Assembly (NCBI GenBank): GCA_963663385.2
Contig: CAXXXD010000002.1
Coordinates: 896,001-960,000 of the forward strand
Source: Oceanispirochaeta sp.
Lineage (GTDB): Bacteria > Spirochaetota > Spirochaetia > DSM-2461
Reading direction: 5' to 3'
DNA length: 64,000 nucleotides
Positions 4,436 to 47,534 of this stretch are shown in pieces; the first letter of the stretch is position 1; every line of letters starts with the position of its first letter. The position numbers were made by a program, and so were the translations under genes. The notes under the pieces were generated by a model. It saw only the letters and a list, made by a program, of their open reading frames with translations, did no database searches and was not told the origin of the DNA.

Positions 4436-4611
4436 TTTATTTCTTCCTCCGTTAAAGGATACCATTAAGTTAATCATATAAGAGCCGCCCCCGCGGATTA
4501 GGGAGTGCCGGGACGGCTTTTAAAATGTATAAACCGCAAGCAGGAACGTCTTCCTGTGCTGTGATTCTAAATATACTGCCGAACGGACAGGCTTTGTATT
4601 AACACAGAGGG

Positions 4612-4642
4612 AACAAATCTGAACGGATTGTTCAGATTTGTT
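4612..4642. promoter_or_regulatory. Perfect 13-bp inverted repeat in the divergent efflux/two-component intergenic region
   Basis: AACAAATCTGAAC-GGATT-GTTCAGATTTGTT. Confidence 0.5.
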
Positions 4643-4743
4643 ATATTGGGATTTTATGGATTTACCGCAGGTTTTGTGAGAAAATGGCGCAGAGCGGTAA
4701 AGCTCCATTATAATGACAGTTATTGGAAACAGAGGGATAGAAA

Positions 4744-7456: not shown

Positions 7457-7691
7457 CTCTTCCTCCCCAACCCATACTTTCAGGGGATTAGTACCAAGTC
7501 ACCGGGAATCACAGTATTTTTCATTCCTTTCTCCTCTAATTATAAGGGAGAGGGAATAAAAACTCCAATTTCCGGAGAAATTCAGAAAACAATTATTTTT
7601 TTTGTTGCATCCTTGACTAACAGTTCCGGAAGCAGTATTTTAAAGATAAAATAATATCGATACAAAAATATCGTATAGATAGGAGATATAT

Positions 7692-32110: not shown

Positions 32111-33208
32111 TTACCGTTTAACCCGTCCCGAAGCATCTCCCTTCATCAGTGAGATCACTTCCTCTCTGGTGGAGTAATTCAAATCATTCAGAATGGAGTG
32201 GCAGAGGCAGGATGCCGCCACCGCATATCCAAGGGAATCCTGCAGGTTCAGAGACAGCTCATCATCTGTCAGGGCATAGATAAGTCCGGCAGAGAAAGCG
32301 TCTCCTCCGCCTACCCGGTCTACGATATTTTTTATCTCATAGGGTTTATACTGACCGCCGTCAAGGGGTGCGAAATAGGATTTTTCCGTTATCCCGTCAT
32401 ATAACATGGCTCTCCAGTTATTATGACTGGCCGAAAGGCTTTCCCGCAGGGTTATGGCCACTTTCCGAACATTGGGAAACTGGCTGATTATCTGGCCTGC
32501 CACATCCGGGTAACGATCGATTTCCAGATTGCCGCTGTGTACATCCGTATCGCCTGCTTTAATCTGCAGGATATCCCAGGCATCCTCCTCATTTCCGATG
32601 ACAACATCAACAAAGGGCAGGATTTGTCGCATGGTTTTTTCGGAAAGCTCCCTCGGATCTGTTCCGGGCTCCCATCTCCAGAGTTTCCTGCGGAAGTTCA
32701 GATCACAGGAAACCTGCAGCCCTGCTTCTCTGGCTTTTTGGACAGCTGTCAGTGATGCTTCTGCCGCAACCCGGGATATGGCGGGAGTAATCCCGCTGAT
32801 ATGGAACCAGTGGGCATCTTTAAAGGCGCCTTCCCAGTTATAATCCTCCGCCGGTGTCCGGGTTATAACAGAATGTTCTCTGTCATAGATTACACTGCTG
32901 GGACGCTGATTGGCTCCGGTTTCTATAAAATACAAACCAAGCCGTCCCTCAGATCTCCGGATAAATGAGGTGTCCACACCGAATTTCCTTACCGCATCAA
33001 GACAGGCTTCTCCCAGAGAGTTCGAAGGCAGGGCAGAGATGAATCTGGCATTCCGGCCCATTATTCTGTTCGATACGGCAACATTCCCTTCGGCTCCCGA
33101 AAAACTTATGGAAATATTTCCCGGCATCCCCTGGCGAATCTTCATAAAACCTTCAGGAGCAATCCGCCCCATGATTTCTCCAAATGTTACGACTGTTTTA
33201 TTGCTCAT
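32111..33208 (-). CDS. kdgK: 2-keto-3-deoxygluconate kinase (PfkB family)
   Basis: 'TFGEIM', 'GAEGNVA', 'HISGITPA', 'DLNFR', 'DRVGGGDAF'; adjacent to the aldolase. Confidence 0.88.
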   Translation of the reverse strand: MSNKTVVTFGEIMGRIAPEGFMKIRQGMPGNISISFSGAEGNVAVSNRIMGRNARFISALPSNSLGEACLDAVRKFGVDTSFIRRSEGRLGLYFIETGANQRPSSVIYDREHSVITRTPAEDYNWEGAFKDAHWFHISGITPAISRVAAEASLTAVQKAREAGLQVSCDLNFRRKLWRWEPGTDPRELSEKTMRQILPFVDVVIGNEEDAWDILQIKAGDTDVHSGNLEIDRYPDVAGQIISQFPNVRKVAITLRESLSASHNNWRAMLYDGITEKSYFAPLDGGQYKPYEIKNIVDRVGGGDAFSAGLIYALTDDELSLNLQDSLGYAVAASCLCHSILNDLNYSTREEVISLMKGDASGRVKR

Positions 33209-33209
33209 A

Positions 33210-33869
33210 TTACCCTCTTACTTCTTTAAGAATTTTAACAGCCTCATCGGCATTGCGGGCGATGGAATCCCAGTCTCCTGCATCAATCAACCGGGGAGGG
33301 GCTATCCAGCTTCCCCCCAGCGCTATTACTTCCGGAGCTTCAAGGTAACTCCGCATATTATCTAAAGTCAGACCTCCCAGAGGCATATACCGGAGTCCCA
33401 GAAAACTGTAGGGTGCGTTTATACCCTTCAGATATTTGATGCCTCCCATCCCTTCCGCATGAAAAAACTTGAGAATATTGCAGCCGTTTTCAACAGCGCT
33501 TTCAATTTCCGAGGGGATGGATATTCCGGGAGCAAACGGAACAGCCTTTCGGGACGCTTCGTTCATTACATTCAGATTCAACCCCGGAGCAACCGCAAAA
33601 TCTACTCCGGCGCTGCTTACCTGCCGAACCTGATCGGTTGTGAGAACTGTTCCGGCTCCGCATGTCATTTCCGGAACTTCGTTCATTATTCTTTTCATTG
33701 ATTCCATTGCGGCAGCTGTTCGGAGGGTTAACTCTATGGCTTTGATACCGCTGTCGGCAAGGGTTCTGGCAAGAGGGACGGCTTTCTCCGCATCATTAAT
33801 GACCAGAACGGCAATAATCCCCGCTGTTTCTATTTTCCTTTCAAGAGGCTCTTCTATTCTTTTATGCAT
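33210..33869 (-). CDS. eda: KDPG/KHG aldolase
   Basis: 'IELTLRT', 'GAGTVL', 'LKFF', 'PLGG', 'GGSW'; start moved to MHKRIE (AAGGAG RBS). Confidence 0.92.
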   Translation of the reverse strand: MHKRIEEPLERKIETAGIIAVLVINDAEKAVPLARTLADSGIKAIELTLRTAAAMESMKRIMNEVPEMTCGAGTVLTTDQVRQVSSAGVDFAVAPGLNLNVMNEASRKAVPFAPGISIPSEIESAVENGCNILKFFHAEGMGGIKYLKGINAPYSFLGLRYMPLGGLTLDNMRSYLEAPEVIALGGSWIAPPRLIDAGDWDSIARNADEAVKILKEVRG

Positions 33870-34079
33870 TTGTACAAAGCTCCTTCGGATCTGTATTTTC
33901 TGATGATAAAAAACATACAACGGAATTTTTGCAGTGTCAATATAATGATACTCAAGTCTCATTATATGGGATTGCATTATCTTAAATAGCGATCTTAATC
34001 TCTTTTAATGAGATAAGAAGGTCTTTGTAACAAAAAGGTTCCTTGAAAAGCGGGAATCCCATTGATATAATCATTCCCT

Positions 34080-34832
34080 ATGGATGTTGCACAAACCGTT
34101 GCCAGAGCCCTGGGCCTGCTTGAACTGCTGGGTAAGCATAAAAAGCTTACCGCCGGGAAAATTACCGAACTGACTCAGATAAACCGGAGTACCACCTATC
34201 GTCTTCTGGCGACCCTGCAGCAGCTGGGCTATATTCGAAAAGATAAGGAGTTCGGTTTTTATTCCCTTTCTCCCAAGATCCTGAATCTGGCGTCTTCGGT
34301 ACGGGAAACGCGGGATATCAAGGAAATCAGCAGCCCCTTTCTGAATGAACTCCATAAGGAGACACAGGAAACGGTTCATCTTGCGGTTCTGGATGTGGAT
34401 GAACTGATCTACCTGGAAAAAAGGGAATCAACCAGGAGCCTCCGGGTTGTTACAATTTCAAAACCCGGCAGTCATGCTCCTCTCTATTGTACTGCCATAG
34501 GTAAAGTACTGCTTTCAGGCATGCCGGATGATCAATTCAGAAGCTATATAAAAAATGTACAATTCAGGAAATATACAGAATCGACTCTCACGGGTATTCA
34601 GGAACTTATTACAGAACTGGATGCTATCAGGGATATGGCATATGCCGAAGACAGGGAGGAACACGAAGAGGGGGTGTACTGTATTGCCGCTCCCATTAAA
34701 GATCCTTCGGGAAAAATTATTGCGGCATTCAGTATTTCCATGCCAACAGTAAGGTGCACCCCTGAACGTAAGGCGGAGCTGATAGAGAGAATTGTTAAGG
34801 TTTCACAGAAAATCTCCGGAGCGATTGGTTAG
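34080..34832 (+). CDS. IclR-family regulator (KdgR-like)
   Basis: 'TVARALGLLE', 'ETVHLAV', 'PLYCTAIGK', 'CIAAPI'; divergent from eda-kdgK. Confidence 0.92.
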   Translation: MDVAQTVARALGLLELLGKHKKLTAGKITELTQINRSTTYRLLATLQQLGYIRKDKEFGFYSLSPKILNLASSVRETRDIKEISSPFLNELHKETQETVHLAVLDVDELIYLEKRESTRSLRVVTISKPGSHAPLYCTAIGKVLLSGMPDDQFRSYIKNVQFRKYTESTLTGIQELITELDAIRDMAYAEDREEHEEGVYCIAAPIKDPSGKIIAAFSISMPTVRCTPERKAELIERIVKVSQKISGAIG

Positions 34833-35015: not shown

Positions 35016-36071
35016 ATGAAAAGTTATATATCCGTTATAACTCTGTTCTTCATCCTGCTTTTCATGGAAATACCGCTTCCGTCTGCTGAAATCGAAAGTT
35101 CCGATCTTGATGCCCTTGCCGACTATATCTATTCCCCCATCAGAATAAAAACCGTGCAGCGGGGAAACTTTCAGGGGATTTTAAGGGATGTCAATGAACA
35201 GTGGGTGGAAATTATCGCCCGGGACGGGCAGATCCTTTTAATTGATTATGCATCCATAGAGACCTATGTCCTATTCGATCCGGTTCTGGAGAAGGATACT
35301 TTTTTTCAGGATTCCGCTTCCAACCGTCTGATAGTTATGCCCACTGCCTTTCCCATGGAAACAGGTGAATTTCATGTTGCCAATCAGGAAATCGCCGCTT
35401 TCTCCATGAGTTACGGATTAAATGACAGTGTCTCTTTATGGTCGGGGATCAGTATTCCCGGTCTTCTGCTGAATGCCCGGTACTCCACCGCTCTGTCTTC
35501 GGGTTTTGCCGTTTCATTCGGCTCTTTTGCCGGTTTCTCCTGGTTTGCAGACAGCTTTGATTCGATCCCCGCTGTAATGATTCCCTACGGTATCGCCTCC
35601 TGGGGTGAGGAGAATAATAACTTTACCATTGGGGGCGGTCCCGTATTTCTGTTTAATCAGGAGTGGGATATGCCCGGCTTTGTTCTTGTGGCGGGGGGCA
35701 AAAAAGTTCTGACGTCTACAACATCTTTAGTATTTGAGAACTGGATCTCCTGGGGGCTGCGGGAGGACTTTCATCCGATGAACCCGATCCCTTATACGGA
35801 GGATGACGATGATGATCCTCCGGAAAGCCTCTATGATGAAAAATGGAGCGCCGTTCCGGTTATGATCTTTCCTGCGGTGTGTTTCCGGATTGCCAGTGAA
35901 CGGCTCTCCTGGGATATAGGGATTGTCGTTCCCCTGACCATTACCAATACAGACTATATCCGGGAGGATGACACCCACTACTGGGAAAACGGCGATTTTG
36001 AAATTAACGGGATTGCGGATGATTTTATTATCCCCATTCCCCTTATCAGTGTGACCTACCGGATTGATTGA
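35016..36071 (+). CDS. Hypothetical exported protein, possible outer-membrane beta-barrel
   Basis: Signal peptide; amphipathic Gly/aromatic strands; C-terminus 'ISVTYRID'; GGAGG RBS. Confidence 0.55.
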   Translation: MKSYISVITLFFILLFMEIPLPSAEIESSDLDALADYIYSPIRIKTVQRGNFQGILRDVNEQWVEIIARDGQILLIDYASIETYVLFDPVLEKDTFFQDSASNRLIVMPTAFPMETGEFHVANQEIAAFSMSYGLNDSVSLWSGISIPGLLLNARYSTALSSGFAVSFGSFAGFSWFADSFDSIPAVMIPYGIASWGEENNNFTIGGGPVFLFNQEWDMPGFVLVAGGKKVLTSTTSLVFENWISWGLREDFHPMNPIPYTEDDDDDPPESLYDEKWSAVPVMIFPAVCFRIASERLSWDIGIVVPLTITNTDYIREDDTHYWENGDFEINGIADDFIIPIPLISVTYRID

Positions 36072-36156
36072 GCGCCCTGTTAAACTTCATCATCATATTT
36101 CCATGCCCTGCATTTACCAGTTTCCCGCTATCATAGAGAATCTCGTGCAATTTGAT

Positions 36157-37995
36157 TTATGCATTATTATCAGCAGATAAGATGTATCCTGGAAGTTCAA
36201 TCCTGATCGTAAGACCTCCGCCGGTGTTATTTAACGCTTCGATTAATCCATTGTGTTTTTCTATAATATTATGGCAGATTGCCAGGCCCATTCCCAAATT
36301 CGCTTCTCCTGTTTTTGAACTGAAAAAGGGAAGAAATACTGACTGGAGTTCTTCATCTGCAAGACCCGGTCCATTGTCGCTTACTTTAATAACCACTTTA
36401 CTGTGGTTTTTATCTAAACCGCATTGAACTGTTACAGTTCCTTCTTTCTCGAGGGCTTCAAAACTGTTTTTAATCAGATTCAGGATCAGCTGTTTTATTT
36501 CAAGTTTATCGGCATTGATCAGAATCTCATCATTAACTATATCAATGAGAAGATTGATTTTCCGTTTTCTGGCTTCATATCCAATAAGATTGCAGATGTC
36601 TTTTATAGTCTGACCAAGATCAAATACCTGCACCGTTTCATTCTCTTTTCCAGGTGACAGGGCAACCAGATTCCCGATAATTTTGGATATATCCTCCACT
36701 TCCTCCTCAATACTGACCAGAGAGGCTGCTATTTCATCATTTTTGTTATTAAAGCGTATGTTCTCAAGATAATAGTGGATGATTTCCAATGGATTATTTA
36801 TTTCATGGGCTACTCCTGAAGCCAGCAGCCCTACTGATGCCAGGTTTTCCGAGAGCTGCATCTTTTTTCGGAGTTCTTCATAGGATGTTATATCTTCAAT
36901 AATGATGATGGTTCCTATCAGCTTGCTGCCTTCTCTTACAGGAAACAGAGTAATATTATTCAAGGTTGCCATCTTTTCTGTATAAAGGCGAATATTAAAA
37001 TACTTGTTCTCTTTACCCCTCTTCAGGTCCGGTCTGATCTGCCTGAGAACTTCAGCATTTTCAATTCCCAGAAGGGTCGAGAATCTTGTGGAATCTTCAA
37101 GAGTCTCGCCCTTGGGAAAAAGTTCTGCCGCCTGTTTGTTTACAAGTTTTACTTCTTCATCAGTATTGATAAGGATAAGGTTTACAGGCAGGTCATTCAG
37201 AATTGTTTCATTGAATTTCAGAAGCTCGGTAAATGACTGTCTCGTCAGCTTTTGAAGGCTGTCCGTTATCTGTGTGTAAGCCAGTTTGATTAGTGCTATC
37301 CGGTCTATCTTATCAGCATCTTCCGTTGCAAATACCGAGCCGTTTCTGATAATGGAAACTTTATCGGCAAAGAAGAAAATATCGTCGATCCTGTGGGTTA
37401 TGAAGAGTATCCCCATACCCAGATCTTTCCTTCTGTGCAGAAGGATGTGAATCTTGCGGAGGCTTGCGGCATTCAGTTTTTCCAGCGCCTCGTCAATAAT
37501 CAGAAGAGACGGGTTTTTATACAGTGCTTTTAGAATATCAACCAGGACAAGATCGCTTAGACCCAGTTGTTTTATGGGCTTCGAAAGATCCAGATCAATT
37601 TCCACATCCAGGGATGCCAGAAAATCAATGACTTTCCTTTTCTGTCCTCTTCTTGTCTGCAGAGGAAATACGGAAGATTTTTCATCCAGGATTATGTTTT
37701 CCCAGACTGAAAATTCGGTAACCAGGGGGTTCTGCTGACTGACATAATAGATTCCCAGTTCTCTGGCTTTTTTTCTGCTCAGCTTTGATTCAAACTGTCC
37801 GTTAACGCTGAGATGCCCGCCCTTGGGACTGAAGAAGCCGCTGAGAATATGGGCAATCGTAGATTTCCCGGTCCCATGCTCACCCACAATGGCATGAATT
37901 TCTCCGCAGTTAACTTCAAGGGTCGTATCGTTGAGAACAGGATTCGTTCCGTAATTGTAGCTGACTTTCTGAAGGGTTATTGTTTCAAGCTTCAT
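36157..37995 (-). CDS. Hybrid protein: sugar-ABC ATPase domain - PAS - histidine kinase (no TM segments)
   Basis: Walker A 'GEHGTGKST', Q-loop 'VSQQ', Walker B 'LLIIDE', H-loop 'ITHR'; PAS 'ILNDLPVNLILIN...EDIT'; 'AHEINNPL', 'NLIKNS', 'DNGPG', 'GMGLAI'. Confidence 0.9.
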   Translation of the reverse strand: MKLETITLQKVSYNYGTNPVLNDTTLEVNCGEIHAIVGEHGTGKSTIAHILSGFFSPKGGHLSVNGQFESKLSRKKARELGIYYVSQQNPLVTEFSVWENIILDEKSSVFPLQTRRGQKRKVIDFLASLDVEIDLDLSKPIKQLGLSDLVLVDILKALYKNPSLLIIDEALEKLNAASLRKIHILLHRRKDLGMGILFITHRIDDIFFFADKVSIIRNGSVFATEDADKIDRIALIKLAYTQITDSLQKLTRQSFTELLKFNETILNDLPVNLILINTDEEVKLVNKQAAELFPKGETLEDSTRFSTLLGIENAEVLRQIRPDLKRGKENKYFNIRLYTEKMATLNNITLFPVREGSKLIGTIIIIEDITSYEELRKKMQLSENLASVGLLASGVAHEINNPLEIIHYYLENIRFNNKNDEIAASLVSIEEEVEDISKIIGNLVALSPGKENETVQVFDLGQTIKDICNLIGYEARKRKINLLIDIVNDEILINADKLEIKQLILNLIKNSFEALEKEGTVTVQCGLDKNHSKVVIKVSDNGPGLADEELQSVFLPFFSSKTGEANLGMGLAICHNIIEKHNGLIEALNNTGGGLTIRIELPGYILSADNNA

Positions 37996-39317
37996 AGCAG
38001 CCCATGTTTTTCCAGCCGGTTGTAAATCGTTCTTCTGCTGATTTTCAGATACTCAGCAGCTTTTTTTTTGTTGTTGTTGCATGCCCTGAGAGCACCAAGA
38101 AGTTCTTCTTTTTCAAGTTCCTCGGGATTCTCCGAAGAATGTTCAATGGAGGAGTTCTCTCTGCCCGTAAGATAGGGCGGGAGATCCTGTTTTCTTATCA
38201 GTTCATCAGATGACATTGTCATGGCAAAATTGATAACATTTTTTAACTCCCGGATATTACCCGGCCAGAAATAACTGTTAATAATATTCCTGGCTTCCAT
38301 ATCAAAAGCTTTTTCTTCTCCGTAATCCTTCATAAAGTTAGTGATGAGACCTGGAAGATCGTCCTTTCTCTCCCGTAACGGCGGGAGTCGGAATAAGGCC
38401 GTATTCAGTCTGTAATACAGGTCCTCCCGAAACTGTTTTTCTTTGATCAGTTCTTCCAGATCCTTATTGGTGGCTGCAATAAAGCGGACATTTACTTTGA
38501 TAGTCTTATCCCCTCCAAGGCGTCTTATTTCACTGTTCTGCAGAGTTCTCAGAACACGCGCCTGAATCTCAAGGGGCATGTCCCCGATTTCATCCAGAAA
38601 GAGTGTTCCCCCGTCAGCCTGCTCAAATATCCCTTTGTAAAGGGAGTTCGCCCCTGTATAGGCCCCCTTTTCATGGCCGAACAGTTCGTTGTCCAGCAGG
38701 TTCGCCGGGAAAGAGGCACAATTTATTCTATACATTTTACGGGATGCCCTCGGGGAGTGATTATGTACATACTCCGCCATAATCTCTTTTCCCGTTCCGC
38801 TTTCACCGATAAATACCACAGGAAAATCGGTTTCCGCCATTTTATGAATCTTCATCATAAGGCTGTTGATTTGCGGATTCATGGATTGATAAGCGGCTGT
38901 ACGGCGGCTGAGCCTGTTTTTCAGTTCCGCATTTTCGCTGGCTAATCTGGTGGATTGAAGAGCATTTTCGACGACTCTCTGTACACGTGCAAAGGGCAGT
39001 GGTTTCTGCATATAATCCCAGGCTCCCAGTTTGATGGCATCAACAGCTGTTTCTATGCTGGCATAACCCGTCATAATGATGACAGGGACAGCGGAGTCGA
39101 TGCTTTTAATTTTCTTCAGGATATTTATCCCATCTTCATCTTTCAGCCTGAGATCCAGAAGTACGACATCGGCCTGTTTTTCCCGGATATAGGGGAGGGC
39201 TTCTCTGCTGTTCAGAGCAAAATGGGCTTTGTAACCGATATTTTCAAAGTCATGAGCCAGAATGCGACAGAGTTTTTCCTTGTCATCAATGATCAATAAT
39301 GTATAGTTTGTGTGCAT
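37992..39317 (-). CDS. Sigma54-dependent NtrC/AtoC-family response regulator (REC-AAA+-Fis HTH)
   Basis: 'IIDD', 'LLDLRL', 'GESGTGKE', 'ELFGHEKGAYTGA', 'FLDEIG', 'WPGNIREL', 'AAEYLKISRRTIYNRL'. Confidence 0.96.
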   Translation of the reverse strand: MHTNYTLLIIDDKEKLCRILAHDFENIGYKAHFALNSREALPYIREKQADVVLLDLRLKDEDGINILKKIKSIDSAVPVIIMTGYASIETAVDAIKLGAWDYMQKPLPFARVQRVVENALQSTRLASENAELKNRLSRRTAAYQSMNPQINSLMMKIHKMAETDFPVVFIGESGTGKEIMAEYVHNHSPRASRKMYRINCASFPANLLDNELFGHEKGAYTGANSLYKGIFEQADGGTLFLDEIGDMPLEIQARVLRTLQNSEIRRLGGDKTIKVNVRFIAATNKDLEELIKEKQFREDLYYRLNTALFRLPPLRERKDDLPGLITNFMKDYGEEKAFDMEARNIINSYFWPGNIRELKNVINFAMTMSSDELIRKQDLPPYLTGRENSSIEHSSENPEELEKEELLGALRACNNNKKKAAEYLKISRRTIYNRLEKHGLL

Positions 39318-39319
39318 GT

Positions 39320-39360
39320 ATGTAAAATTACCCTTTACATAATGTAAACCTGGTGCACAT
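39320..39360. promoter_or_regulatory. Candidate upstream activator sequences for the enhancer-binding protein
   Basis: Perfect ATGTAAA-N7-TTTACAT (39320-39340) and imperfect ATGTAAA-N5-TGCACAT (39342-39360), about 100-140 bp upstream of the sigma54 promoter. Confidence 0.6.
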
Positions 39361-39459
39361 AATAATGCAAGGCTTATTTTGAATATATTACTTTGTGATT
39401 AATTTAAATCCTTGTGGTATAAAATAATAAATCGCATTTTCTTTTATATTTCTGTAAAG

Positions 39460-39475
39460 TGGCATGATCTTTGCA
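39460..39475 (+). promoter_or_regulatory. Sigma54 (-24/-12) promoter
   Basis: TGGCATGATCTTTGCA, with exact GG-N10-GC spacing. Confidence 0.85.
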
Positions 39476-39526
39476 ATTTGAATGAGAAAAGCCCCTCAAA
39501 GGGGCAGGACATTCAAAGGAGTTTTT

Positions 39527-40663
39527 ATGAAACGTATTCTAACCAGTTTTATTGTCTTGATGTCGGTAATTCCCATGGGTTTTGCAGCCGGTCAGCAGGA
39601 AAGTGCTGCAGTACCGGAACCTGAAGTTATGGAAGTGGAAGTGCTGCCGGAAGTCAGCGATAGTGATCTGGCTCTTGCAAAGGGACCGAATGGCGAAGCC
39701 GCCGTACGGGCCGCAGAAGTAAAACTGACGGATGCACAGATTCAGAAAGTGAAAGACGGTGAGTATAAGGCCGCTCTTCTATGGGCCGGATCTGGTGAAT
39801 GGTACAATGCCCTCTCAAAAGGAGCGGAGGACGAATTCGCCCGTCTCGGTGTAAAAGTGGTATCCAATGCGGACGCACAGTTCGATCCGGCCAAACAGGC
39901 TACCGACGTTGAAACATGTATGGCTCTGAGGCCGGATGCCATTTTGACTCTTGTTGTTGATCCTGTTTCAGGTGCCCGTGCCTTCAGGCCTGTTGTGGAT
40001 AATGATGTTGTCCTCGTTTTTGCAGATAACGGTGTAGACGGGTATCGGGCGGGAAGCGAATATGTCAATGTTGTCACCGGTGATCATTTCGGTATGGGAC
40101 GTGCTGCGGCAGAACTGATGAATGACGCACTGGACGGAGAAGGCAAGGTAGGATTTATCTACCATGATGCCGATTTCTTTGTCACAAATAACAGAGATTC
40201 AGCATTCAAGAAAGATATTGAAAACAAATACAACGGTATTTCCATCGTTGCTGAAAAAGGATTCTCCGAAGAGAGTGCCACGGAAGAAGTCACGAATGCG
40301 ATGATGACCCAGAATCCGGACATCAACGGAATCTATGTGGCCTGGGATGTGGCGGCGGAAGGTGTTGTTGCAGCCCTTCGTTCAGGCGGATGGAAGGATG
40401 TCAAAGTAATCACTCATGACCTTGGTGCCACCCTGGATCTGGATATAGCACTTAAAGGAAATGTTTACGGTAAAGTGGCTGATGTTCCCTATGATATCGG
40501 AGTCACCATGGCCCGATCCGCCGCTCTTAAACTTTTAGGTGAAGATGTTCCTCCCTTCGTCGTTGTCCCTTATCTGAAGATGACCAGTGACAATATCCGG
40601 GAGGTCTGGAATCAGTCTCTCAGAAAAGATCCCCCCTCCAGTGTTTTGAAGTCTCTGCAGTAA
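39527..40663 (+). CDS. Sugar ABC transporter substrate-binding protein (RbsB-like, CUT2)
   Basis: Start moved to MKRILT (AAGGAG RBS); 'FAAGQQE'; 'DAQFDPAKQ', 'YVAWD'. Confidence 0.9.
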   Translation: MKRILTSFIVLMSVIPMGFAAGQQESAAVPEPEVMEVEVLPEVSDSDLALAKGPNGEAAVRAAEVKLTDAQIQKVKDGEYKAALLWAGSGEWYNALSKGAEDEFARLGVKVVSNADAQFDPAKQATDVETCMALRPDAILTLVVDPVSGARAFRPVVDNDVVLVFADNGVDGYRAGSEYVNVVTGDHFGMGRAAAELMNDALDGEGKVGFIYHDADFFVTNNRDSAFKKDIENKYNGISIVAEKGFSEESATEEVTNAMMTQNPDINGIYVAWDVAAEGVVAALRSGGWKDVKVITHDLGATLDLDIALKGNVYGKVADVPYDIGVTMARSAALKLLGEDVPPFVVVPYLKMTSDNIREVWNQSLRKDPPSSVLKSLQ

Positions 40664-40749
40664 TTCTTAAGGCATATTGACAGACAATCTGCCGGAGCAG
40701 TTCTAACTGTTCCGGTATTTGCCGGCCCAGGCCGGAGACAGGAGGATCC

Positions 40750-41715
40750 ATGACAAACATTTTATCTAATAAGGAATCTTTAAAAGATTTTATCCGGCAG
40801 TATATTGTTTATATAAGTTTTGTTTTTCTACTGCTTATTTTCTCCATAATACTATATGACAAAGGTTTTCTTTCTTCAGTGAATCTTATGAATATATTAA
40901 GGCAGACCGCAATGGTGTCTGTTATGGCGGTAGGTATGACTTTTGCCATTTCTGCCGGGGAAATCGACCTTTCCATCGGGGGGACTGTTGCTCTCTCCGC
41001 TCTTATAGCCGCTTTGGTTCTGGAGAGAACAGATGTCGTTATTTTCGCACTTGCCGCTGCGCTGACGACAGGCGGACTTATCGGACTGGTGAATGGTCTC
41101 ATCACGACCAAAGCCAGAATCCCCGCCTTTCTTGTAACTCTGGGAACATCCAGTATCGTTACAGGTCTGGCCCGTTCCATAACAAATCTGGAAGCGGTTC
41201 CCATTATTAACAGGGGCTTTACATTCTTTTTCGGTTCCGGCGATATCGGTCCGGTTTCAACACTGTTTATCTGGACTGCAGTTGTTGCCTGTCTCGGCCA
41301 TATACTGCTTAAACATACCCCATTCGGCAAAGCTGTTCTTGCAACCGGAGGGAACCGGAATGCTGCTCATTACACTGGAATCAAAACAGATTTCACAAGG
41401 CTTATGGTTCTTGTTATCAGCGGTATTTCCGCATCCTCTGCCGGTATCCTTTACGCCGGAAGACTGCATGGCGCCCGTTACACACTGGGAGAAGCAGATG
41501 TGATGACCGTCATTGCCTCTGTCATAATCGGAGGAACCAGTTTTACAGGAGGAAAAGGAACTGCTATCGGAGCCATTATCGGTTCGGTTATTATGGGGAT
41601 GCTGAACAATGCGCTTCTTCTTATGGGGCTTTCTGTTTCAGAGCAGATGATAGCAAGGGGAATCATCATCATTATCGCGGTATCTCTCAGCTTGAGAGAA
41701 GGATCGAGGCATTAA
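40750..41715 (+). CDS. Sugar ABC transporter permease (RbsC-like)
   Basis: 'GEIDLSIG', 'IPAFLVTLG', 'GGNRNAA..TGI', 'VIIGGTSFTGGKG'. Confidence 0.94.
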   Translation: MTNILSNKESLKDFIRQYIVYISFVFLLLIFSIILYDKGFLSSVNLMNILRQTAMVSVMAVGMTFAISAGEIDLSIGGTVALSALIAALVLERTDVVIFALAAALTTGGLIGLVNGLITTKARIPAFLVTLGTSSIVTGLARSITNLEAVPIINRGFTFFFGSGDIGPVSTLFIWTAVVACLGHILLKHTPFGKAVLATGGNRNAAHYTGIKTDFTRLMVLVISGISASSAGILYAGRLHGARYTLGEADVMTVIASVIIGGTSFTGGKGTAIGAIIGSVIMGMLNNALLLMGLSVSEQMIARGIIIIIAVSLSLREGSRH

Positions 41716-41782
41716 TTTTCAGGGACCTTAATGAGAAAATAGCAGGGTTCTGAGAACCCTTGACAGTTTGCAGGAGATAACA

Positions 41783-42976
41783 ATGTTCTTAAATACACTT
41801 ATCAGGAAGAATCCTGAATTTATAAAAGCCGCAGTCACTCTGCATCAGGAAATGAAACTGCCTTCCAACTGCTGTGTCCTTGATCTGGACGCAATAAGAA
41901 AAAACGCCTCTTCTATAAGCAGCAAAGCCCGTTCTCTGGGTATGCAGACATTCGGGATGACAAAGCAGATCGGCCGGCATAAACAAGCCCTAGAGGCAGC
42001 TGTTTCCGGAGGGATAACCAGCTTTGTCACAGTCGATATCAAAGGGTTCCGTTCCCTGAGAAGCAATGGATATAAGATCGGACACACCGGTCATCTGGTA
42101 CAGATCCCTGCAGGGGACATTCCCTATTGCCTGTCTCAAAAGCCGGAGTACTGGACCGTTTTCAATAAGGAAACCTTTACTGTTTTGAATACGGAAGCAC
42201 AGCGGCAGGGGCTGATTCAGAAGGTATTTCTGAGAATTTACGGAAAAAATGATACTTTTTATGAAGGTCACGCGGGAGGCATCCCTGTGGAGGAACTGGA
42301 AAGCACTCTGGACTACCTTTCCGGTCTCAGTTCACTCCGTTTTGCCGGTCTGACAACATTTCCCTGTCTTCTCTATAATCGTGACAGTTCCTCCGTGGAA
42401 AAAACTCATAATCTGAAGACACTCAGTGCGGCGGCCGTACGTCTGCAGAATCTTGGATTAAAGGATTTTGAAGTTAACGCACCGGGAACAACTTCCGGAG
42501 AAATCCTGCCTCTGCTGGCTGAGGAAGGGGTTACTCAGGTTGAGCCGGGTCATGGACTGACCGGCACCACTCCTCTTCATGCAGTAAGGTCCCTTGATGA
42601 GATCCCCGGGGTTCTTTATTTATCGGAAGTGGCTCATCTGCATAAGGGGACACCCTACTTTTATGGCGGCGGTCTGTATATAGATCCTGTTTTCCCTGAT
42701 TACAAACCATCTGCTCTCACATCCGAAAGACCCGGTGATATTCTTAACAGTTCCTATGAGGCACAGATTCCTCCCTATCAGGCCATTGACTATTACGGAA
42801 TGCTGCATGGGGTAAAGGATCACAGTAGTAAAATCGGAGATTCTGTTATCCTCGGATTCCGCCCTCAGGCGTTTGTCCGTACATCCTATGTCGCTTCAAT
42901 AAAAGGGATCAGCAGCGGGAATCCTGAAGTTGCAGGAATTTCGGACTCCAATGGAGGAGCTGTACAGTGGCCGTAA
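41783..42976 (+). CDS. YhfX-like PLP-dependent alanine racemase-fold enzyme
   Basis: 'MF...L...NP', 'MTKQIGR' (PLP lysine), 'GHLVQIP', 'TFPCLL', 'EPGHGLTGTTP', 'YLSEVAH', 'IDYYG', 'FRPQAF'; resembles E. coli YhfX from memory. Confidence 0.82.
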   Translation: MFLNTLIRKNPEFIKAAVTLHQEMKLPSNCCVLDLDAIRKNASSISSKARSLGMQTFGMTKQIGRHKQALEAAVSGGITSFVTVDIKGFRSLRSNGYKIGHTGHLVQIPAGDIPYCLSQKPEYWTVFNKETFTVLNTEAQRQGLIQKVFLRIYGKNDTFYEGHAGGIPVEELESTLDYLSGLSSLRFAGLTTFPCLLYNRDSSSVEKTHNLKTLSAAAVRLQNLGLKDFEVNAPGTTSGEILPLLAEEGVTQVEPGHGLTGTTPLHAVRSLDEIPGVLYLSEVAHLHKGTPYFYGGGLYIDPVFPDYKPSALTSERPGDILNSSYEAQIPPYQAIDYYGMLHGVKDHSSKIGDSVILGFRPQAFVRTSYVASIKGISSGNPEVAGISDSNGGAVQWP

Positions 42977-44466
42977 AAACAATTCTTGAAATGAATGGGA
43001 TCTGTAAGTCATTCGGTCCGGTAGAAGTCCTTAAGAATATTAATTTCTCCCTGGAGAAGGGGGAAATCGTCGGTTTAGCCGGAGCCAACGGTGCAGGCAA
43101 GTCCACTCTGATGAAAATCCTGAACGGGGTCTATTCCTGTGATTCCGGATCAATTTCTGTTAACGGTAAAAAGGGCGTTTTCAACTCTCCGAGGGAATCA
43201 GCGAAAGCGGGAATCGCCATGGTATTTCAGGATTTCAGTCTGATACCGACTCTGACTGTCTGGGAGAATCTGTTTCTGGCTCATGAACCTCTGAAAAAAA
43301 ACGGCTTGATTGACCGGGAGCTTTGCATCAGAAAATCCAGAGATCTTTTCAGAAAACTTGAAATGGATATTGATCCTGAAATACATCTGGAAAAACTCCC
43401 AGTGGGAAGGCAGCAGATTGTTGAGATTGCCAAAGCACTGAATCACAGTGATGAGGGCGTGTTGATTCTGGATGAGCCTACAGCATCCCTGTCCTGCTCT
43501 GAAATTGAATCCCTTTTTACAATGCTCAGAACACTTAAGAAGCAGGGGCTGTCAATTATAATTGTAACTCATCATCTTCAGGAAATTATGGATCTCTGCG
43601 ACAGGGTCTCGGTATTGCGGGATGGGCAGATTGTGCTCAACTCATCAATTACGGATATAACAGTTGATCATATTGTTGAAGCTTTAGTGGGAGACCAGAT
43701 TGAGCATGTCAACTTTCATTCAGGAAGGAGCCATTCAGATGAAGTTGTCCTTTCTGTCGAAAATCTCGGTATGGATGGTTTCTGGAGTAATCTGTCATTT
43801 GAACTTTGTAAGGGTGAGATCCTGGGAATTGCAGGAGTCCTTGGCAGCGGCAGGACGGAGTTATTAAGTTCGCTTTACGGTCTTATGAAAAACAGTACGG
43901 GTCAGGTTTCTCTGGAAGGAAAGGTTTTTAATCCTGAAAATCCGGCAGATGCTCAGGGTTCGGGGCTTTTTATGATCCCTGAAAACAGGCATCGCCATGG
44001 GATTGTAATGGGAGATTCGGTTTATAATAATATACTGCTTCCAGTCTGGAGGAAGTTGAGTTCCAGGGGATTTCTCAGAAATGACACGGGGTGCAACCTG
44101 GTGCAGTCGCTTATCGAACGTTTGAATATAAAGGTTCAAACTATGGATCAGGATATTGCAAGCCTTTCGGGAGGAAACCAGCAGAAGGCTGTACTCGCCC
44201 GCTGCCTCACGTCTGATTTCTCCGTCCTTCTTCTGGATGAACCCACCATTGGGGTCGATATAGCGTCAAAGAACGAAATTGCTTCCATTATAAGCGATAT
44301 GGCACAGGAAGGCCGCTCGATCATATTAGTCTCTTCCGAACTGGATGAGATGGCCAAAGTCTGTGACAGGGTCCTGCTGCTTAAGAATGGAAGTCTTTCC
44401 GGTGAACTTTCCTATAGAAAAGGTGATGAAATAAGCGAAGACAGTATAATGCGGCTGATTCAGTGA
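42967..44466 (+). CDS. Sugar ABC transporter ATP-binding protein with two NBDs (RbsA/MglA-like)
   Basis: 'GANGAGKSTL', 'ILDEPTASL', 'LSGGNQQK', 'LLDEPTIGVD'. Confidence 0.95.
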   Translation: MAVKTILEMNGICKSFGPVEVLKNINFSLEKGEIVGLAGANGAGKSTLMKILNGVYSCDSGSISVNGKKGVFNSPRESAKAGIAMVFQDFSLIPTLTVWENLFLAHEPLKKNGLIDRELCIRKSRDLFRKLEMDIDPEIHLEKLPVGRQQIVEIAKALNHSDEGVLILDEPTASLSCSEIESLFTMLRTLKKQGLSIIIVTHHLQEIMDLCDRVSVLRDGQIVLNSSITDITVDHIVEALVGDQIEHVNFHSGRSHSDEVVLSVENLGMDGFWSNLSFELCKGEILGIAGVLGSGRTELLSSLYGLMKNSTGQVSLEGKVFNPENPADAQGSGLFMIPENRHRHGIVMGDSVYNNILLPVWRKLSSRGFLRNDTGCNLVQSLIERLNIKVQTMDQDIASLSGGNQQKAVLARCLTSDFSVLLLDEPTIGVDIASKNEIASIISDMAQEGRSIILVSSELDEMAKVCDRVLLLKNGSLSGELSYRKGDEISEDSIMRLIQ

Positions 44467-44563: not shown

Positions 44564-45745
44564 TTACAGGTCTGCCATCATCTCCGGAACCGACCCTATA
44601 CCAATAGCTTTTATTTCCGGAGTGATTGAAAAATCATGGCTGGTTCGGCTGATAACATAAGATTTTCCAGCCTGGTAGGAGGATGTGGATTTCTCTATTT
44701 CCTTTTTTATCTCTTCAATCATCCGGGTATCTTTTTTATCGGGATTCTCAGTCCATTTACACTCTATCAGGGTCAGCTTTCCACCCGTATCAATAAAGAA
44801 GTCTACCTCCCGGCCGGAGGAGTCTCTATAAAACCAGAAAGCTGGAGCTGCGGTGATGGTTCGTCCGATTTTCCGCAGTTCCGAGAAAACAAAGGTTTCC
44901 CATATCTGCCCTTTAAAGGGAGAAGAGGAAATATCAGTCTCCTTTATTCCCAGAAGAAAGCAGAGCAGTCCTGAATCACAGAAGTAAAACTTAGGGGATT
45001 TAATCACACGTTTTGAAAAATTCTGAAACCATGGTTCCAGAAGTGATATCTGATTAGATGCTTCGAGGACATTAAGCCAATCTCCTGCCGCTTTAACAGA
45101 AATACCCGTATCTCTTGCTACTTCTGATTTATTCAGAATCTGTCCGCTCCGGGGCGCCAGAACCCTGAGAAAACGTTCAAAATCTCTGAGGCTTCCCACA
45201 TTGAGGATCTGGCGGACATCCCTTTCAAGATAAGTGGCCAGGTATGAGCTGATAAAGGGGAGGGCAGGCATCTCCTGCTGTCTCCACAATTCCGGGTATT
45301 GTCCACGGGTTATGATTTTTTCCAGAAGCACTTTATCGGTGATTTCCCGGAAACTCAGATTCTCCAATTCAATAATGACCGAACGTCCGGCCAGGCTTTC
45401 GGATACTTCTTTCATCAGTGTAAACTTCTGGCTGCCTGTCAGGATATAAGATCCCATTTTATGTCTGTTCTGGTCTATTCTGTTTTTTAAGTGCCGGAAT
45501 AGTCCGGGGGCATACTGAACTTCATCAATTATAAGGGGCTCTTTGTATTGATTGAAGAACTCCTCCGGATTTTGCTCCGCCTGTTCCGCCAGGCTGGGTA
45601 GATCGAGGGATACGTAATTATATTGGGGAAAGAGCCGTTGCAGCATTGTCGTTTTACCTGATTGCCTGGCTCCGGTAAGAATTAAAACAGGAAAAAACTG
45701 ACACAGCTCTCTGATTTTTTCAGAATAAATCCTTTTGTAATACAT
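44564..45745 (-). CDS. AAA+ ATPase with DUF4143 and C-terminal PD-(D/E)xK-like region
   Basis: 'GARQSGKTT', 'IIDEVQ', 'LTGSQ', 'YLERDV', 'KSPKFYFCDSGL', 'EVDF...IECK'; start moved to the ATG at 45745. Confidence 0.88.
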   Translation of the reverse strand: MYYKRIYSEKIRELCQFFPVLILTGARQSGKTTMLQRLFPQYNYVSLDLPSLAEQAEQNPEEFFNQYKEPLIIDEVQYAPGLFRHLKNRIDQNRHKMGSYILTGSQKFTLMKEVSESLAGRSVIIELENLSFREITDKVLLEKIITRGQYPELWRQQEMPALPFISSYLATYLERDVRQILNVGSLRDFERFLRVLAPRSGQILNKSEVARDTGISVKAAGDWLNVLEASNQISLLEPWFQNFSKRVIKSPKFYFCDSGLLCFLLGIKETDISSSPFKGQIWETFVFSELRKIGRTITAAPAFWFYRDSSGREVDFFIDTGGKLTLIECKWTENPDKKDTRMIEEIKKEIEKSTSSYQAGKSYVISRTSHDFSITPEIKAIGIGSVPEMMADL

Positions 45746-45753
45746 AATAAACA

Positions 45754-45793
45754 ATTTTAACTTTCAAAGTTAATATTGTCAACTTTCAAAGTT
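45754..45793 (-). promoter_or_regulatory. Sigma70 promoter overlapped by two AACTTTCAAAGTT palindromes
   Basis: TTGACA-N17-TAAAAT (45782-45754); palindromes at 45759-45771 and 45781-45793. Confidence 0.7.
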
Positions 45794-45884: not shown

Positions 45885-47534
45885 ATGGATTTTCAGGCCA
45901 GGTTACGAAAAGAATTCATGGTTTTCTCTATAAAACTGATTTTCGCTATTGTATTTCTCTTCACATCTGTAACGGTCATTGTCAATCTGATAAATAACAA
46001 TATCAATAAAACTCATAGTATCGAATTTGTAAACGAGTCTTTTATGAACTTAACTGATAAAATTGCCATGCAGATAAGTTTACACAATTCTGATGATGAT
46101 TACATTAATGCCATACAGAAGAACCATGTCAGCAGCAAACTTGTTTCAAGCACCGACTATTCATTTTCCCGGACCATAAGTGTCCGGTATAATTACGATA
46201 TTTATGATATGAATACAGATCCCGTATATCAGGAATCCTATCATCTGTTCCCTCAATACAAAATATATCTGAATATAATCAGAGACCGGATTAGAAATAA
46301 CTCCCCTGTAAAGTTTATTTTATATCCGAGCTTCAAAACCCGAACGGCTATTCTTATATATTACGGCGGATTATACAAAGATACGGAACTTATCGGGTTT
46401 GATATGTATTCGATTGAAATCAGTGACCTGGATAATGCTTTATTACCCAATACCGGTGACTATGTTATAACTGATCGATTCGGCGGTATTATCGCAACAA
46501 ACAATTTCAAGCTGTTGGAGAACAGCCTGGATTTTGAATATGCCCCGGGATATACGATTGATGCTGTTAAATATCATGTTACCAGAGTCGAAAAGGATTT
46601 CTATTCTATTTACTCCCTTGAGGAAAACATCAGTTTAAGCAGATCCTATGTAATTGTTTTCTCTGCATTGTTCCTGATAGTACTTGCTGTAGTAGCAATC
46701 TCTAATAGGATTATTAAAAAGATTGCCAGAGAAAATGCCCGGAGCGTCGAGTCTATCATATCCGATACAAACACCGTATCAATGGGGCATCTGGATCATA
46801 GAATCAATGAAAACCTTGATGATGACTTCAGGAGTCTGGCAATCAACGTAAACGAGATGTTAGATAAATTGAATTACGAAATTACCTTGAATAAAGAGTT
46901 AAGTGAAACGAATATCATCTTCGAAAAAAGAAAACTCGATGCTCAATTCAATCCTCATTTTTTATATAATTCTCTGGAAACAATTCGCTATTCAATGCAG
47001 TTTGATATTAAAGGGACTGAACAGTACATTTTAGACTTAACTGCTATTTTGAGGTACTCAATATCCAATGATATCAGTTATTCATCAGTGGAAAACGATC
47101 TGATATATATAAGAAAGTATTTAGAGCTGCATAAATTCCGATTTTCTGATAAACTAACGTATTCCATAACAGCATCAGATGAGATGAAGGGTGTTTTAGT
47201 TCCCAAACTTGCTCTGCAGCCTCTGATAAGCAACAGTATCAAATACGGCTTTACCGATAGTTTATCAGTAAGAATAGATATCACCACGGAAGTAATCGAT
47301 GAAGTCTGTTATATAAAAGTACGCGATAATGGAGTCAGTATTACAGATGAAGTCATAGACGAAATTAATAAAACCTGCAAACAGAAAAAGAACCCTACAA
47401 ACCACATAGGCGTTCATAACGTTTTAAGACGATTTATGATCCTTTATCCCGATGCCGTGCTGAATGTCTGGCGCGATGACGAGGGAACTGTCTTTCAAAT
47501 AAGTTTTAAAAACAGGTTGGTCGCAAATGTATAA
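45885..47534 (+). CDS. YesM/LytS-type sensor histidine kinase
   Basis: 'AQFNPHFLYNSLETI', 'LRYSI', 'LQPLISNSIKYG', 'HIGVHNV'. Confidence 0.92.
   Translation: MDFQARLRKEFMVFSIKLIFAIVFLFTSVTVIVNLINNNINKTHSIEFVNESFMNLTDKIAMQISLHNSDDDYINAIQKNHVSSKLVSSTDYSFSRTISVRYNYDIYDMNTDPVYQESYHLFPQYKIYLNIIRDRIRNNSPVKFILYPSFKTRTAILIYYGGLYKDTELIGFDMYSIEISDLDNALLPNTGDYVITDRFGGIIATNNFKLLENSLDFEYAPGYTIDAVKYHVTRVEKDFYSIYSLEENISLSRSYVIVFSALFLIVLAVVAISNRIIKKIARENARSVESIISDTNTVSMGHLDHRINENLDDDFRSLAINVNEMLDKLNYEITLNKELSETNIIFEKRKLDAQFNPHFLYNSLETIRYSMQFDIKGTEQYILDLTAILRYSISNDISYSSVENDLIYIRKYLELHKFRFSDKLTYSITASDEMKGVLVPKLALQPLISNSIKYGFTDSLSVRIDITTEVIDEVCYIKVRDNGVSITDEVIDEINKTCKQKKNPTNHIGVHNVLRRFMILYPDAVLNVWRDDEGTVFQISFKNRLVANV

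Follow-up and report, generated by a model that had tools for sequence, protein, structure and literature searches.

A histidine kinase with its own ABC nucleotide-binding domain, encoded beside CUT2-type importers: a candidate transporter-coupled sensor

A 64-kb stretch of the genome of the spirochaete Oceanispirochaeta sp. (assembly GCA_963663385.2, contig CAXXXD010000002.1, positions 896,001 to 960,000), hereafter the window, to which the coordinates and strands below refer, contains a gene for a predicted soluble histidine kinase whose N-terminal region is a nucleotide-binding domain (NBD) of the ATP-binding cassette (ABC) type. This gene lies directly downstream of one coding for a sigma54-dependent response regulator, the stop codon of the latter and the start codon of the former overlapping as ATGA, and the pair diverges from the sigma54 promoter of an operon that codes for a substrate-binding protein (SBP), a permease, a YhfX-like enzyme and an ATPase with tandem NBDs (Table 1). 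The arrangement had been put forward in an earlier sequence-only reading of the same stretch; the ATGA overlap can be read directly in the sequence, and the divergent promoter with its four-gene operon was recovered as proposed. The SBP is most likely translated from the ATG at 39527, which has a ribosome-binding site (aaaggag), rather than from 39482, because, judged by the -12 element, transcription would begin at or downstream of the latter. As the operon has a single permease gene, the permease is presumably a homodimer.

Table 1. Features of the kinase-importer locus (coordinates in the window)
Feature	Position	Strand	Basis
NBD-PAS-HisKA-HATPase_c sensor kinase, 612 aa, soluble	36157..37995	-	open reading frame (ORF), Pfam, NCBIfam, AlphaFold2 model, hydropathy
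ABC nucleotide-binding domain, NBD1-like, aa 1-240	37276..37995	-	Pfam/NCBIfam, motif alignment, model
Short variable linker, aa 241-259	37219..37275	-	model confidence (pLDDT) <50; columns unconserved in family alignment
PAS domain, aa 260-368	36892..37218	-	weak Pfam PAS_9/PAS_8; PAS-like strand/helix pattern in model
DHp/HisKA helices, phospho-acceptor His397 (AHEINNPL)	36664..36888	-	Pfam; H397 invariant in alignment
HATPase_c catalytic domain, aa 456-602	36190..36630	-	Pfam; invariant residues
Sigma54-dependent response regulator, 441 aa, REC + AAA+ (Sigma54_activat) + HTH_8, GAYTGA loop	37992..39317	-	ORF, Pfam, NCBIfam
Candidate activator-binding sites: TGTAAA/TTTACA/TGTAAA palindromes and TGCACA...TGCA element	39321..39369	unstranded	inference from sequence
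Sigma54 -24/-12 promoter TGGCATGATCTTTGCA	39460..39475	+	sequence pattern; conservation vs locus L103; recurrence in related loci
Periplasmic SBP, Peripla_BP_4	39527..40663 (longest ORF from 39482)	+	ORF, Pfam, ribosome-binding site
BPD_transp_2 permease, RbsC/AraH-like	40750..41715	+	Pfam, NCBIfam
YhfX-like enzyme of the pyridoxal-phosphate (PLP) fold (YhfX-like_C + Ala_racemase_N), inside the transporter operon	41768..42976	+	Pfam; L103 has equal gene order
Tandem-NBD CUT2 ATPase, 499 aa, tandem ABC_tran	42967..44466	+	ORF, Pfam, NCBIfam, motif alignment

Pfam profiles detect ABC_tran at residues 21-171 of the kinase (70.4 bits against a cut-off of 25), HisKA at 390-447, HATPase_c at 496-602 (73.7 bits) and, with weak scores, a PAS region at 263-370 (PAS_9 at 274-370), which in the homologous kinases carries PF08448, PF13426 and PF00989. 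Among NCBIfam models, residues 6-244 match the first half of the CUT2 ATPases LsrA, AraG, YtfR and RbsA (E 1e-28 to 1e-40), and residues 209-602 match kinases of the AtoS/ZraS type. The CUT2 matches score 98-138 bits, far under the cut-offs of 586-850, and comprise one ABC_tran stretch, not a tandem. No membrane segment was detected in the 612-aa protein by Kyte-Doolittle hydropathy, the top 19-residue window reaching only 1.47. The sequence-only reading was thus right in describing one continuous frame of NBD, PAS, HisKA and HATPase without a membrane segment, and in likening the NBD to the first half of the CUT2 ATPase, a likeness further borne out by the alignment and the tree described below. 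The phospho-acceptor H397 is invariant in the family alignment, the H-box pattern occurs in 74 of 75 family members, and in HATPase_c the residues N506, N510, D540, G542, G544, G568 and G570 of the N, G1 and G2 boxes are invariant. Since the kinase and regulator genes are adjacent and overlapping, the two proteins are likely to be partners, the kinase presumably autophosphorylating and passing the phosphate to the regulator. The two genes are predicted to be co-transcribed.

An AlphaFold2 model of the kinase built from 32 sequences (mean predicted local distance difference test, pLDDT, 78.2; predicted template-modelling score, pTM, 0.43) is confident over the NBD (residues 1-240, block mean pLDDT mostly 82-94) and falls below 50 at residues 241-259, coinciding with a variable stretch of the family alignment that is preceded by the conserved segment IDK..LIKLAYTQ. 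Beyond this linker the model has a PAS fold (260-368), two DHp helices (370-416 and 420-444) and the catalytic domain (456-602). No PDB entry spans both halves of the kinase, the matches covering residues 5-244 or 258-607, and none with a sequence related to the permease was found.

We aligned the kinase NBD with the first and second NBDs (NBD1 and NBD2) of the tandem ATPases from 75 modules of this kind. The window NBD has the Walker A motif GEHGTGKST, the Q-loop residue Q87, the Walker B motif LLIIDE and the H-loop residue H201. Throughout the 75 kinase NBDs the Lys, Gly and Ser of Walker A, the Q-loop Gln and the Walker B Asp are invariant, and the catalytic Glu (72/75) and H-loop His (70/75) are nearly so; the Asn of Walker A is replaced by His in all of them. 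The LSGGQ signature is absent, none of the 75 having S-G-G: the window protein reads L-G-L-S-D-L-V at this point and the consensus is L-N-L-S-D-R-V. The Pro-Thr that follows Walker B in every NBD1 and NBD2 is also missing, the kinases having instead A/S-L-E/D-K-L-S (A in 40 and S in 18, L in 68, E in 55 and D in 17, K in 58, L in 66 and S in 53 of the 75), and the window kinase has ALEKLN at this D-loop position. Accordingly, the retention of Walker A, Walker B and H-loop together with the divergence of signature and D-loop, which had been noticed in the window protein, characterizes the whole set. The NBD2 of the module ATPases is degenerate in another manner, with Lys replaced by Arg (62/75), Gln by Glu (63/75) and His by Ser (63/75) and with SGGNQQ kept in 74 of 75; in the window ATPase NBD1 is canonical, and NBD2 has Arg for the Walker A Lys and Ser for the H-loop His alongside a canonical LSGGNQQ.

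The residue-retention profile of the kinase NBD is that of NBD1. At 26 positions the same strongly conserved residue is found in both; 12 constraints of NBD1 are lost in the kinase NBD, among them Q150, E153 and A157 of the signature helix, and 9 are gained, including the IDK..I segment leading to the linker. Because the replacement motifs are conserved within the family, the face that in ordinary ABC proteins forms the NBD-NBD interface appears to be remodelled yet constrained. The retained nucleotide-site residues point to an ATP site under selection. A tree of 240 sequences places the kinase NBDs in a single clade (75/75, support 0.94), which is sister to the clade of the modules' NBD1 domains (0.785), with NBD2 apart; mean identity of the kinase NBD is 27.7% to NBD1 and 19.5% to NBD2. 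From these relationships the fusion seems to have arisen once, long ago, from a domain of the NBD1 type.

A search of 5.8 billion clustered proteins, from which the 120 best matches were listed, gave 118 proteins combining ABC_tran and HATPase_c (580-640 aa, 38-82% identity, 93-99% query coverage) and two fragments of 414 aa and 340 aa. The closest named homologues in this list come from Oceanispirochaeta, and others from metagenome-assembled genomes (MAGs) of Spirochaetales and from KSB3/Vecturithrix. The genome to which the window belongs has 5 full-length paralogues (30-39% identity). Contigs of three separate studies span positions 36000-39500 unbroken, two with 0 differences (one of these possibly the source) and one with 10; the NBD-PAS junction is also crossed by a fourth contig, which is more divergent, with 73 differences over 1155 nt. 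By the homologues, the paralogues and the contigs, therefore, the fusion is not unique to the assembly in which it was noticed.

Related loci were sought in one genome per species (~185,000) with the NBD-specific pattern G[ED]H[GR][AS]GKS[ST][LI], which was used instead of a full-length-alignment search with a generic NtrB H-box pattern that gave mostly ordinary kinases. It yielded 297 stretches with 236 relatives, and the counts of related loci given below refer to the best 80 of these 236, with neighbouring genes classed by BLASTP against the module proteins of the Oceanispirochaeta genome. The 80 loci come mainly from Spirochaetota and KSB3/Moduliflexota, and a few are labelled Planctomycetota, deltaproteobacteria, Opitutae and Bacteroidia, with one 'Clostridium' MAG. 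Among the matches listed for 401 evenly sampled genomes of the phylum, at least 8 genomes have matches with E <= 1e-85 in ORFs of 600-637 aa, and with a more divergent, Pfam-confirmed NBD-kinase subfamily in G030 and G230 at least 10 of the 401 carry the family; the 199 of 401 genomes reached at E <= 1e-50 also take in ordinary CUT2 ATPases (1e-66 to 1e-75) and are not a measure of prevalence. The family is uncommon overall but multi-copy in some lineages. No stand-alone form of the NBD was recovered in a search of shorter proteins, where the 9 matches at E <= 1e-20 were mostly from ~1-kb contigs, plus one gene-call artefact, and a search of longer proteins returned no larger fusion at E <= 1e-30, which is weak evidence. 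With a profile of the NBD and linker, 6 of the 150 listed matches were single-stretch proteins of ~600-620 aa, the list being dominated by tandem CUT2 ATPases, in which two NBD scores sum.

Several variants surfaced in these searches. P0121 (208 aa, annotated HTH_8 + ABC_tran) shares 98% identity with the beginning of the kinase; it evidently comes from a close relative in which the gene call continued past the ATGA overlap, joining the end of the activator to the kinase. Six proteins of 826-870 aa with two N-terminal NBD stretches (P0194, P0200, P0244, P0258, P0270 and P0271) could represent tandem ATPases with a fused permease or other domain. A divergent subfamily (L011, L012, L018, L021) has the Walker A form G[DE]HRAGKST; the L012 paralogue (L012:9152-10966; G000:C4:706178-707953) has Ser in place of the H-loop His (YVTSNIDE), and Walker B reads LILDD in L018. 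Judging from these residues, some members of the subfamily may have given up hydrolysis entirely. In L175 (G281:C3:30000-40000) a 482-aa NBD-PAS-HisKA protein without HATPase_c (ORF 3750-5198, minus strand) neighbours a tandem ATPase split into 304 aa and 189 aa (ORFs 7019-7933 and 7866-8435, plus strand), which represents either a decaying module or assembly frameshifts.

The gene neighborhood is conserved. A sigma54 activator gene lies directly upstream of the kinase gene, in the same orientation, in all 80 related loci; under a strict definition of adjacency the count is 79, L149 dropping out solely through an over-long ORF start. Genes for a permease and a tandem ATPase occur within 9 kb in 73 loci, accompanied by an SBP gene in 70, and the 7 loci that lack a permease or ATPase gene are interrupted by a contig end (L100, L110, L112, L123, L134, L171) or a frameshift (L119). 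A BPD_transp_2 importer is thus linked to the kinase in every one of the 73 loci with enough intact flanking DNA, in agreement with the importer linkage on which the sequence-only reading had been built. Most commonly, the SBP, ATPase and permease genes, in this order, diverge from the activator and kinase genes, and L103 repeats the gene order of the window including the YhfX-like gene. All 5 modules of the Oceanispirochaeta genome share the layout: the 4 other kinases each directly follow a sigma54 activator gene, and their modules have an SBP (three of Peripla_BP type, one of Bmp/PnrA type), a tandem ATPase and 1-2 BPD_transp_2 permeases. Enzymes embedded in the operon vary by module, the YhfX-like PLP-fold protein being that of the window and L103; a 398-aa ORF in the L011 operon (L011:3975-5171), considered as a YhfX homologue, was rejected as unrelated and has no Pfam match. 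Among unusual arrangements, L148 and L156 (Planctomycetota-labelled MAGs) have one transporter operon flanked by two activator/NBD-kinase pairs, and L105 has two complete modules back to back. By tblastn (at least 400 of 499 aa) the Oceanispirochaeta genome (G000) holds 38 genes for tandem-NBD CUT2-like ATPases, which is an unusually large sugar-importer repertoire, and 5 of these are paired with an NBD-kinase.

The promoter of the window operon has the form TGGCAT-N5-TTGCA, a perfect instance of the -24 GG and -12 GC of sigma54 promoters. A loose -24/-12 pattern has 70 matches in 2.77 Mb (both strands), and 40 of them fall within 700 nt upstream of the activator gene, at 40 of 79 loci, against a chance expectation of ~1.5. 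Every one of these 40 is directed into the transporter operon, with none facing the activator gene; in L146, where the transporter lies downstream, a -24/-12 element is found between the kinase and SBP genes. In 4 of the 5 modules of the Oceanispirochaeta genome the promoter is directly upstream of the SBP gene. Comparison of the window with the orthologous L103 reveals the promoter as the best-conserved intergenic block, and the TTTACA..TGT block of the candidate activator sites is partly conserved there. A second -24/-12-like match in the window, at 55579 (plus strand), lies inside a minus-strand ORF and was taken as chance. On the protein side, the genome encodes rpoN (190 bits), the regulator matches Response_reg, Sigma54_activat (221 bits) and HTH_8, and a G[AS][FY]TGA loop, mostly GAYTGA, is present in 69 of 74 activators. 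The sequence data thus give good support to a circuit in which the kinase acts through the activator and the sigma54 promoter on the importer operon, with phosphotransfer itself predicted, and that the module is real and regulates the transporter operon we regard as very highly probable.

Whether the NBD follows the transporter was addressed by mirror-tree and partial Mantel analysis of 67 complete modules. The pairwise distances fall into two blocks, one comprising the kinase NBD, PAS, kinase core and activator (correlations 0.85-0.91) and the other NBD1, NBD2, permease and SBP (0.81-0.89); cross-block correlations of 0.47-0.72 imply that the two-component pairs and the transporters have partly separate histories. 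When the activator is controlled for, the kinase NBD retains partial correlations of 0.34 with the permease, 0.43 with NBD2, 0.26 with NBD1 and 0.27 with the SBP (Mantel p ~0.001 each, in tests that are over-optimistic for related sequences), against -0.07 to 0.07 for PAS and 0.10 to 0.22 for the kinase core. Adding PAS and the kinase core as controls changes the NBD values little (0.26-0.40), and with the NBD itself controlled for, the activator, kinase core and PAS retain only -0.12 to 0.06 with the permease and NBD2. Bootstrapped differences between NBD and kinase core exclude zero for all four partners. The NBD signal persists at 0.16-0.36 (p <= 0.012) in the 58 modules left without those of Bmp type, the 50 left without near-duplicates and the 48 left without either, and in these reduced sets PAS and the kinase core are near zero, save for a weak link of the kinase core to NBD2. 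The NBD is thus the part of the kinase that follows transporter identity, and the co-variation does not single out a contact partner.

Based on these observations we propose that the NBD is the input module of the kinase and senses by engaging the cognate importer, a reading to which we assign a probability of about one half and in which physical docking is the conjectural element. The NBD would bind ATP and engage the importer at the coupling helices of the permease, at NBD2 of the ATPase, or at both. Docking of a substrate-loaded SBP would then alter the state of the NBD, through closure, dimerization or nucleotide occupancy, and this would switch autophosphorylation at His397, since the kinase is dimeric and a short tether joins each of its NBDs to PAS-DHp. 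The phosphate would pass to the activator, the sigma54 promoter would open, and more SBP, permease, enzyme and ATPase would be made. The connection between NBD and PAS is short, variable and modelled with low confidence, and is more in keeping with tethering or dimerization than with a rigid mechanical relay; this counts to some degree against the proposal, and suggests signalling by NBD closure or dimerization, or by recruitment of the dimeric kinase to the membrane, a rigid helix relay being less likely. In a stronger version, which we consider less likely than not, the kinase is an alternative cytoplasmic subunit of the importer, the NBDs of the dimer sitting on both coupling helices of the permease or one of them on NBD2. 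In such a receptor form, closure of the NBDs by the liganded SBP would directly switch the attached kinase, in parallel to a transport form carrying the normal ATPase.

Several observations weigh against engagement of the importer. The co-variation with the periplasmic SBP, which is unable to touch a cytoplasmic NBD, is about as strong as that with the permease, so that the signal speaks for coupling to the transporter as a unit and not for contact, and it could arise from shared history when modules are rewired. In a test of cognate resemblance on 29 cases from ten genomes holding several modules, the kinase NBD was closest to the NBD1 of its own module in 13 cases, with ~10 expected and a mean identity difference of 0.001; restricted to the helix after Walker A, or to the Q-loop and helical subdomain, which are expected to face the permease, the cognate NBD1 was best in 11 of 29, again with 10 expected. 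Such a null weighs against the proposal because use of NBD1's own specificity determinants at a shared docking site would predict some convergence, and it also leads us to reject gene conversion or convergence with the cognate NBD1. Over all modules, identity to the cognate NBD1 is 28.3% compared with 27.7% for non-cognate ones, and as NBD2 has a similar small excess, composition or phylogeny explains it. Complex prediction with two permease copies and kinase residues 1-245 gave 0.55, 0.53 and 0.55, and one unrelated control partner also gave 0.55, so that we count these scores on neither side. There is further a problem of specificity, as 5 such kinases and 38 tandem-NBD ATPase genes share one cell and the permeases hardly differ in their cytoplasmic GGN..AA..GI loop. 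A full ATPase is kept in every intact module, which makes the kinase NBD dispensable for transport, and as neither NBD of the kinase homodimer has LSGGQ, a canonical ATP sandwich between them is impossible. Of the sequence-only interpretation, then, the fusion, the type of NBD, the importer linkage and the promoter stand, and its claim that the NBD docks on the permease, replacing the transport ATPase or beside it, stays conjectural: the NBD does co-vary with the cognate transporter, as PAS does not and the kinase core does only weakly, but the cognate resemblance to NBD1 is negative and the SBP signal is equal.

Some of the same observations would suit an NBD that works as a cytoplasmic switch independent of the transporter, for instance a sensor of ATP/ADP and so of energy state, or a dimerization timer of the kinase driven by ATP binding and slow hydrolysis, with PAS sensing the imported substrate and the importer being merely the regulatory target. 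The kinase is soluble, its ATP-binding residues are invariant, PAS is placed between NBD and DHp, cognate-specific similarity to NBD1 is lacking and every module has a complete ATPase of its own. One would, however, expect transporter specificity to be followed by a substrate-binding PAS and not by a generic energy sensor, whereas the residual co-variation with SBP and permease is nil for PAS (-0.07 to 0.07) and 0.26-0.43 for the NBD. Moreover, the NBD derives specifically from the CUT2 NBD1 lineage, and the family was met only beside BPD_transp_2 importers, no stand-alone or other fusion context having turned up in our searches. We therefore view the switch as somewhat unlikely.

More doubtful still is an NBD that pairs with NBD2 of the ATPase in place of the permease, completing a site with its LSGGNQQ and competing with, or monitoring, NBD1-NBD2 closure, so as to report whether the transporter is engaged or idle. 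This logic resembles that of MalK and MalT, and that of PstB, PhoU and PhoR. It would account for the kinase NBD having kept the contribution of NBD1 to the single consensus site and lost its contribution to the degenerate one, as well as for the conserved catalytic Glu and His, which are hard to explain without a signature in trans; the sole canonical signature of the module is on NBD2 (74/75), and of the partial correlations those with NBD2 are the highest (0.30-0.43 in every subset). Yet the NBD1 to which NBD2 is covalently joined should have the advantage over a third NBD, and the correlation between the two is possibly inflated by homologous folds under shared constraints. Finally, an artefact or decaying accident (assembly chimera, frameshift read-through or pseudogene) can be dismissed as vanishingly improbable: broken copies do occur, as in L175 (482 aa, without HATPase_c, beside a split ATPase) and L119 (split), but the reading is refuted by hundreds of full-length homologues with identity down to 38%, the family loci, the 5 paralogues, the continuous contigs of three studies and the strong conservation of catalytic residues in both NBD and kinase.

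The surroundings of the module contain further genes. Upstream of it, at 32111-34832, are genes for a PfkB-family sugar kinase, a KDPG/KHG aldolase and an IclR-type regulator, a set for keto-deoxy-sugar-acid catabolism that might hint at the kind of substrate handled nearby. Next after the kinase gene, in the reverse orientation, comes a 351-aa ORF (35016-36071) with an N-terminal hydrophobic segment and no Pfam match. The transporter operon is directly followed, on the opposite strand, by a gene for an AAA_14 + DUF4143 ATPase (44564-45754), and at 45885-48285 there is a second two-component pair of sugar type but of another kind, with a membrane kinase of the LytS/YesM type (His_kinase) and a REC/AraC-HTH regulator.

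How ABC importers act as co-sensors of kinases, as in the Pst/PhoU/PhoR, Bce and other systems, is a long-standing question made hard by transient protein contacts. An NBD-PAS-kinase fusion has been kept beside an importer across Spirochaetota, KSB3/Moduliflexota and scattered other phyla, and it explains sigma54 regulation of 5 of the 38 tandem-ATPase importers in a sugar-specialist spirochaete. Should the NBD engage the transporter, the family would offer a soluble and genetically simple system for the conversion of an NBD conformational cycle into phosphorylation, an input domain of a new class to be counted in kinase censuses, and a natural template for biosensors that use SBP specificity; were the kinase an alternative subunit, an SBP-dependent importer would act as a transmembrane receptor with a built-in kinase. 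If there is no such engagement, a degenerate ABC domain, with intact ATP site and remodelled dimer face, would still have been put to a new use as a cytoplasmic signalling module. Full-text literature searches, whose scope did not include subscription-only papers, turned up no description of a fusion of an ABC NBD and a histidine kinase or of its function, in line with the sequence-only reading, which knew of no characterized kinase with its own ABC NBD; database names are generic ('ATP-binding cassette domain-containing protein', 'histidine kinase', and from JGI 'signal transduction histidine kinase/ABC-type ... ATPase').

By analogy, the nearest precedent is the PstB-PhoU-PhoR(PAS) relay. 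In the PstSCAB-PhoU-PhoR system, as reported, the conformation of the importer NBD reaches the kinase through its cytoplasmic PAS domain (PMC5775613, PMC13577022, PMC9239213), the open and closed states of PstB giving opposite signals that are relayed via PhoU to the PAS of PhoR (PMC5775613). The scheme proposed here would share with it an importer NBD conformation as signal and a cytoplasmic PAS of the kinase as receiver. In Pst the transport NBD, the PhoU adaptor and the membrane-anchored kinase are three proteins, whereas here an extra NBD is fused to PAS-HisKA-HATPase_c in a soluble kinase, the module has no PhoU-like gene, and the output is a sigma54 activator. In BceAB-BceS an ABC transporter is needed as co-sensor of the kinase that regulates the transporter's own operon, according to the reports cited (PMC9169098, PMC3023708). 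That transporter is exporter-like with a large extracellular permease loop, and its intramembrane kinase contacts the permease and has no NBD; in our case the transporter is an SBP-dependent importer and the NBD resides within the kinase. Covalent fusion of a transporter to a histidine kinase as input is described for CbrA/CrbS with its SLC5 domain (PMC7096432, PMC5715377). However, the part fused there is the membrane domain of a secondary carrier, while here it is the cytoplasmic ATPase domain of an ABC system whose membrane parts are separate genes.

The CUT2 ATPases RbsA, AraG, LsrA, YtfR and XylG are the closest relatives of the input domain, as residues 6-244 match their first halves and the kinase NBD clade is sister to NBD1, but the kinase has a single NBD without an LSGGQ-type signature, with Pro-Thr replaced and a His in Walker A, and PAS and kinase domains follow. 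The output half is akin to NtrB/NtrC and AtoS/AtoC: the core matches AtoS/ZraS, the regulator matches AtoC/NtrC/ZraR, and the H-box AHEINNPL and the -24/-12 promoter are shared. Unlike AtoS/AtoC, the pair scores 200 bits (cut-off 646 for the AtoS equivalog) and 408 bits (cut-off 714 for AtoC), has no transmembrane or periplasmic domain, and has an ABC NBD as input. Walker-type motifs are also present in the N-terminal domain of KdpD, which is not an ABC NBD. KdpD is described as a histidine kinase that both controls an ATP-driven transporter and acts on it, and whose N-terminal part is a large cytoplasmic domain (PMC11018627); in contrast to the kinase discussed here, it is membrane-anchored, and it serves a pump that is a P-type ATPase complex. 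Sensing coupled to a transporter is thus already known, as are fusions of transporter and kinase such as CbrA/CrbS, and what is new is a kinase with its own ABC NBD encoded beside SBP-dependent importers.

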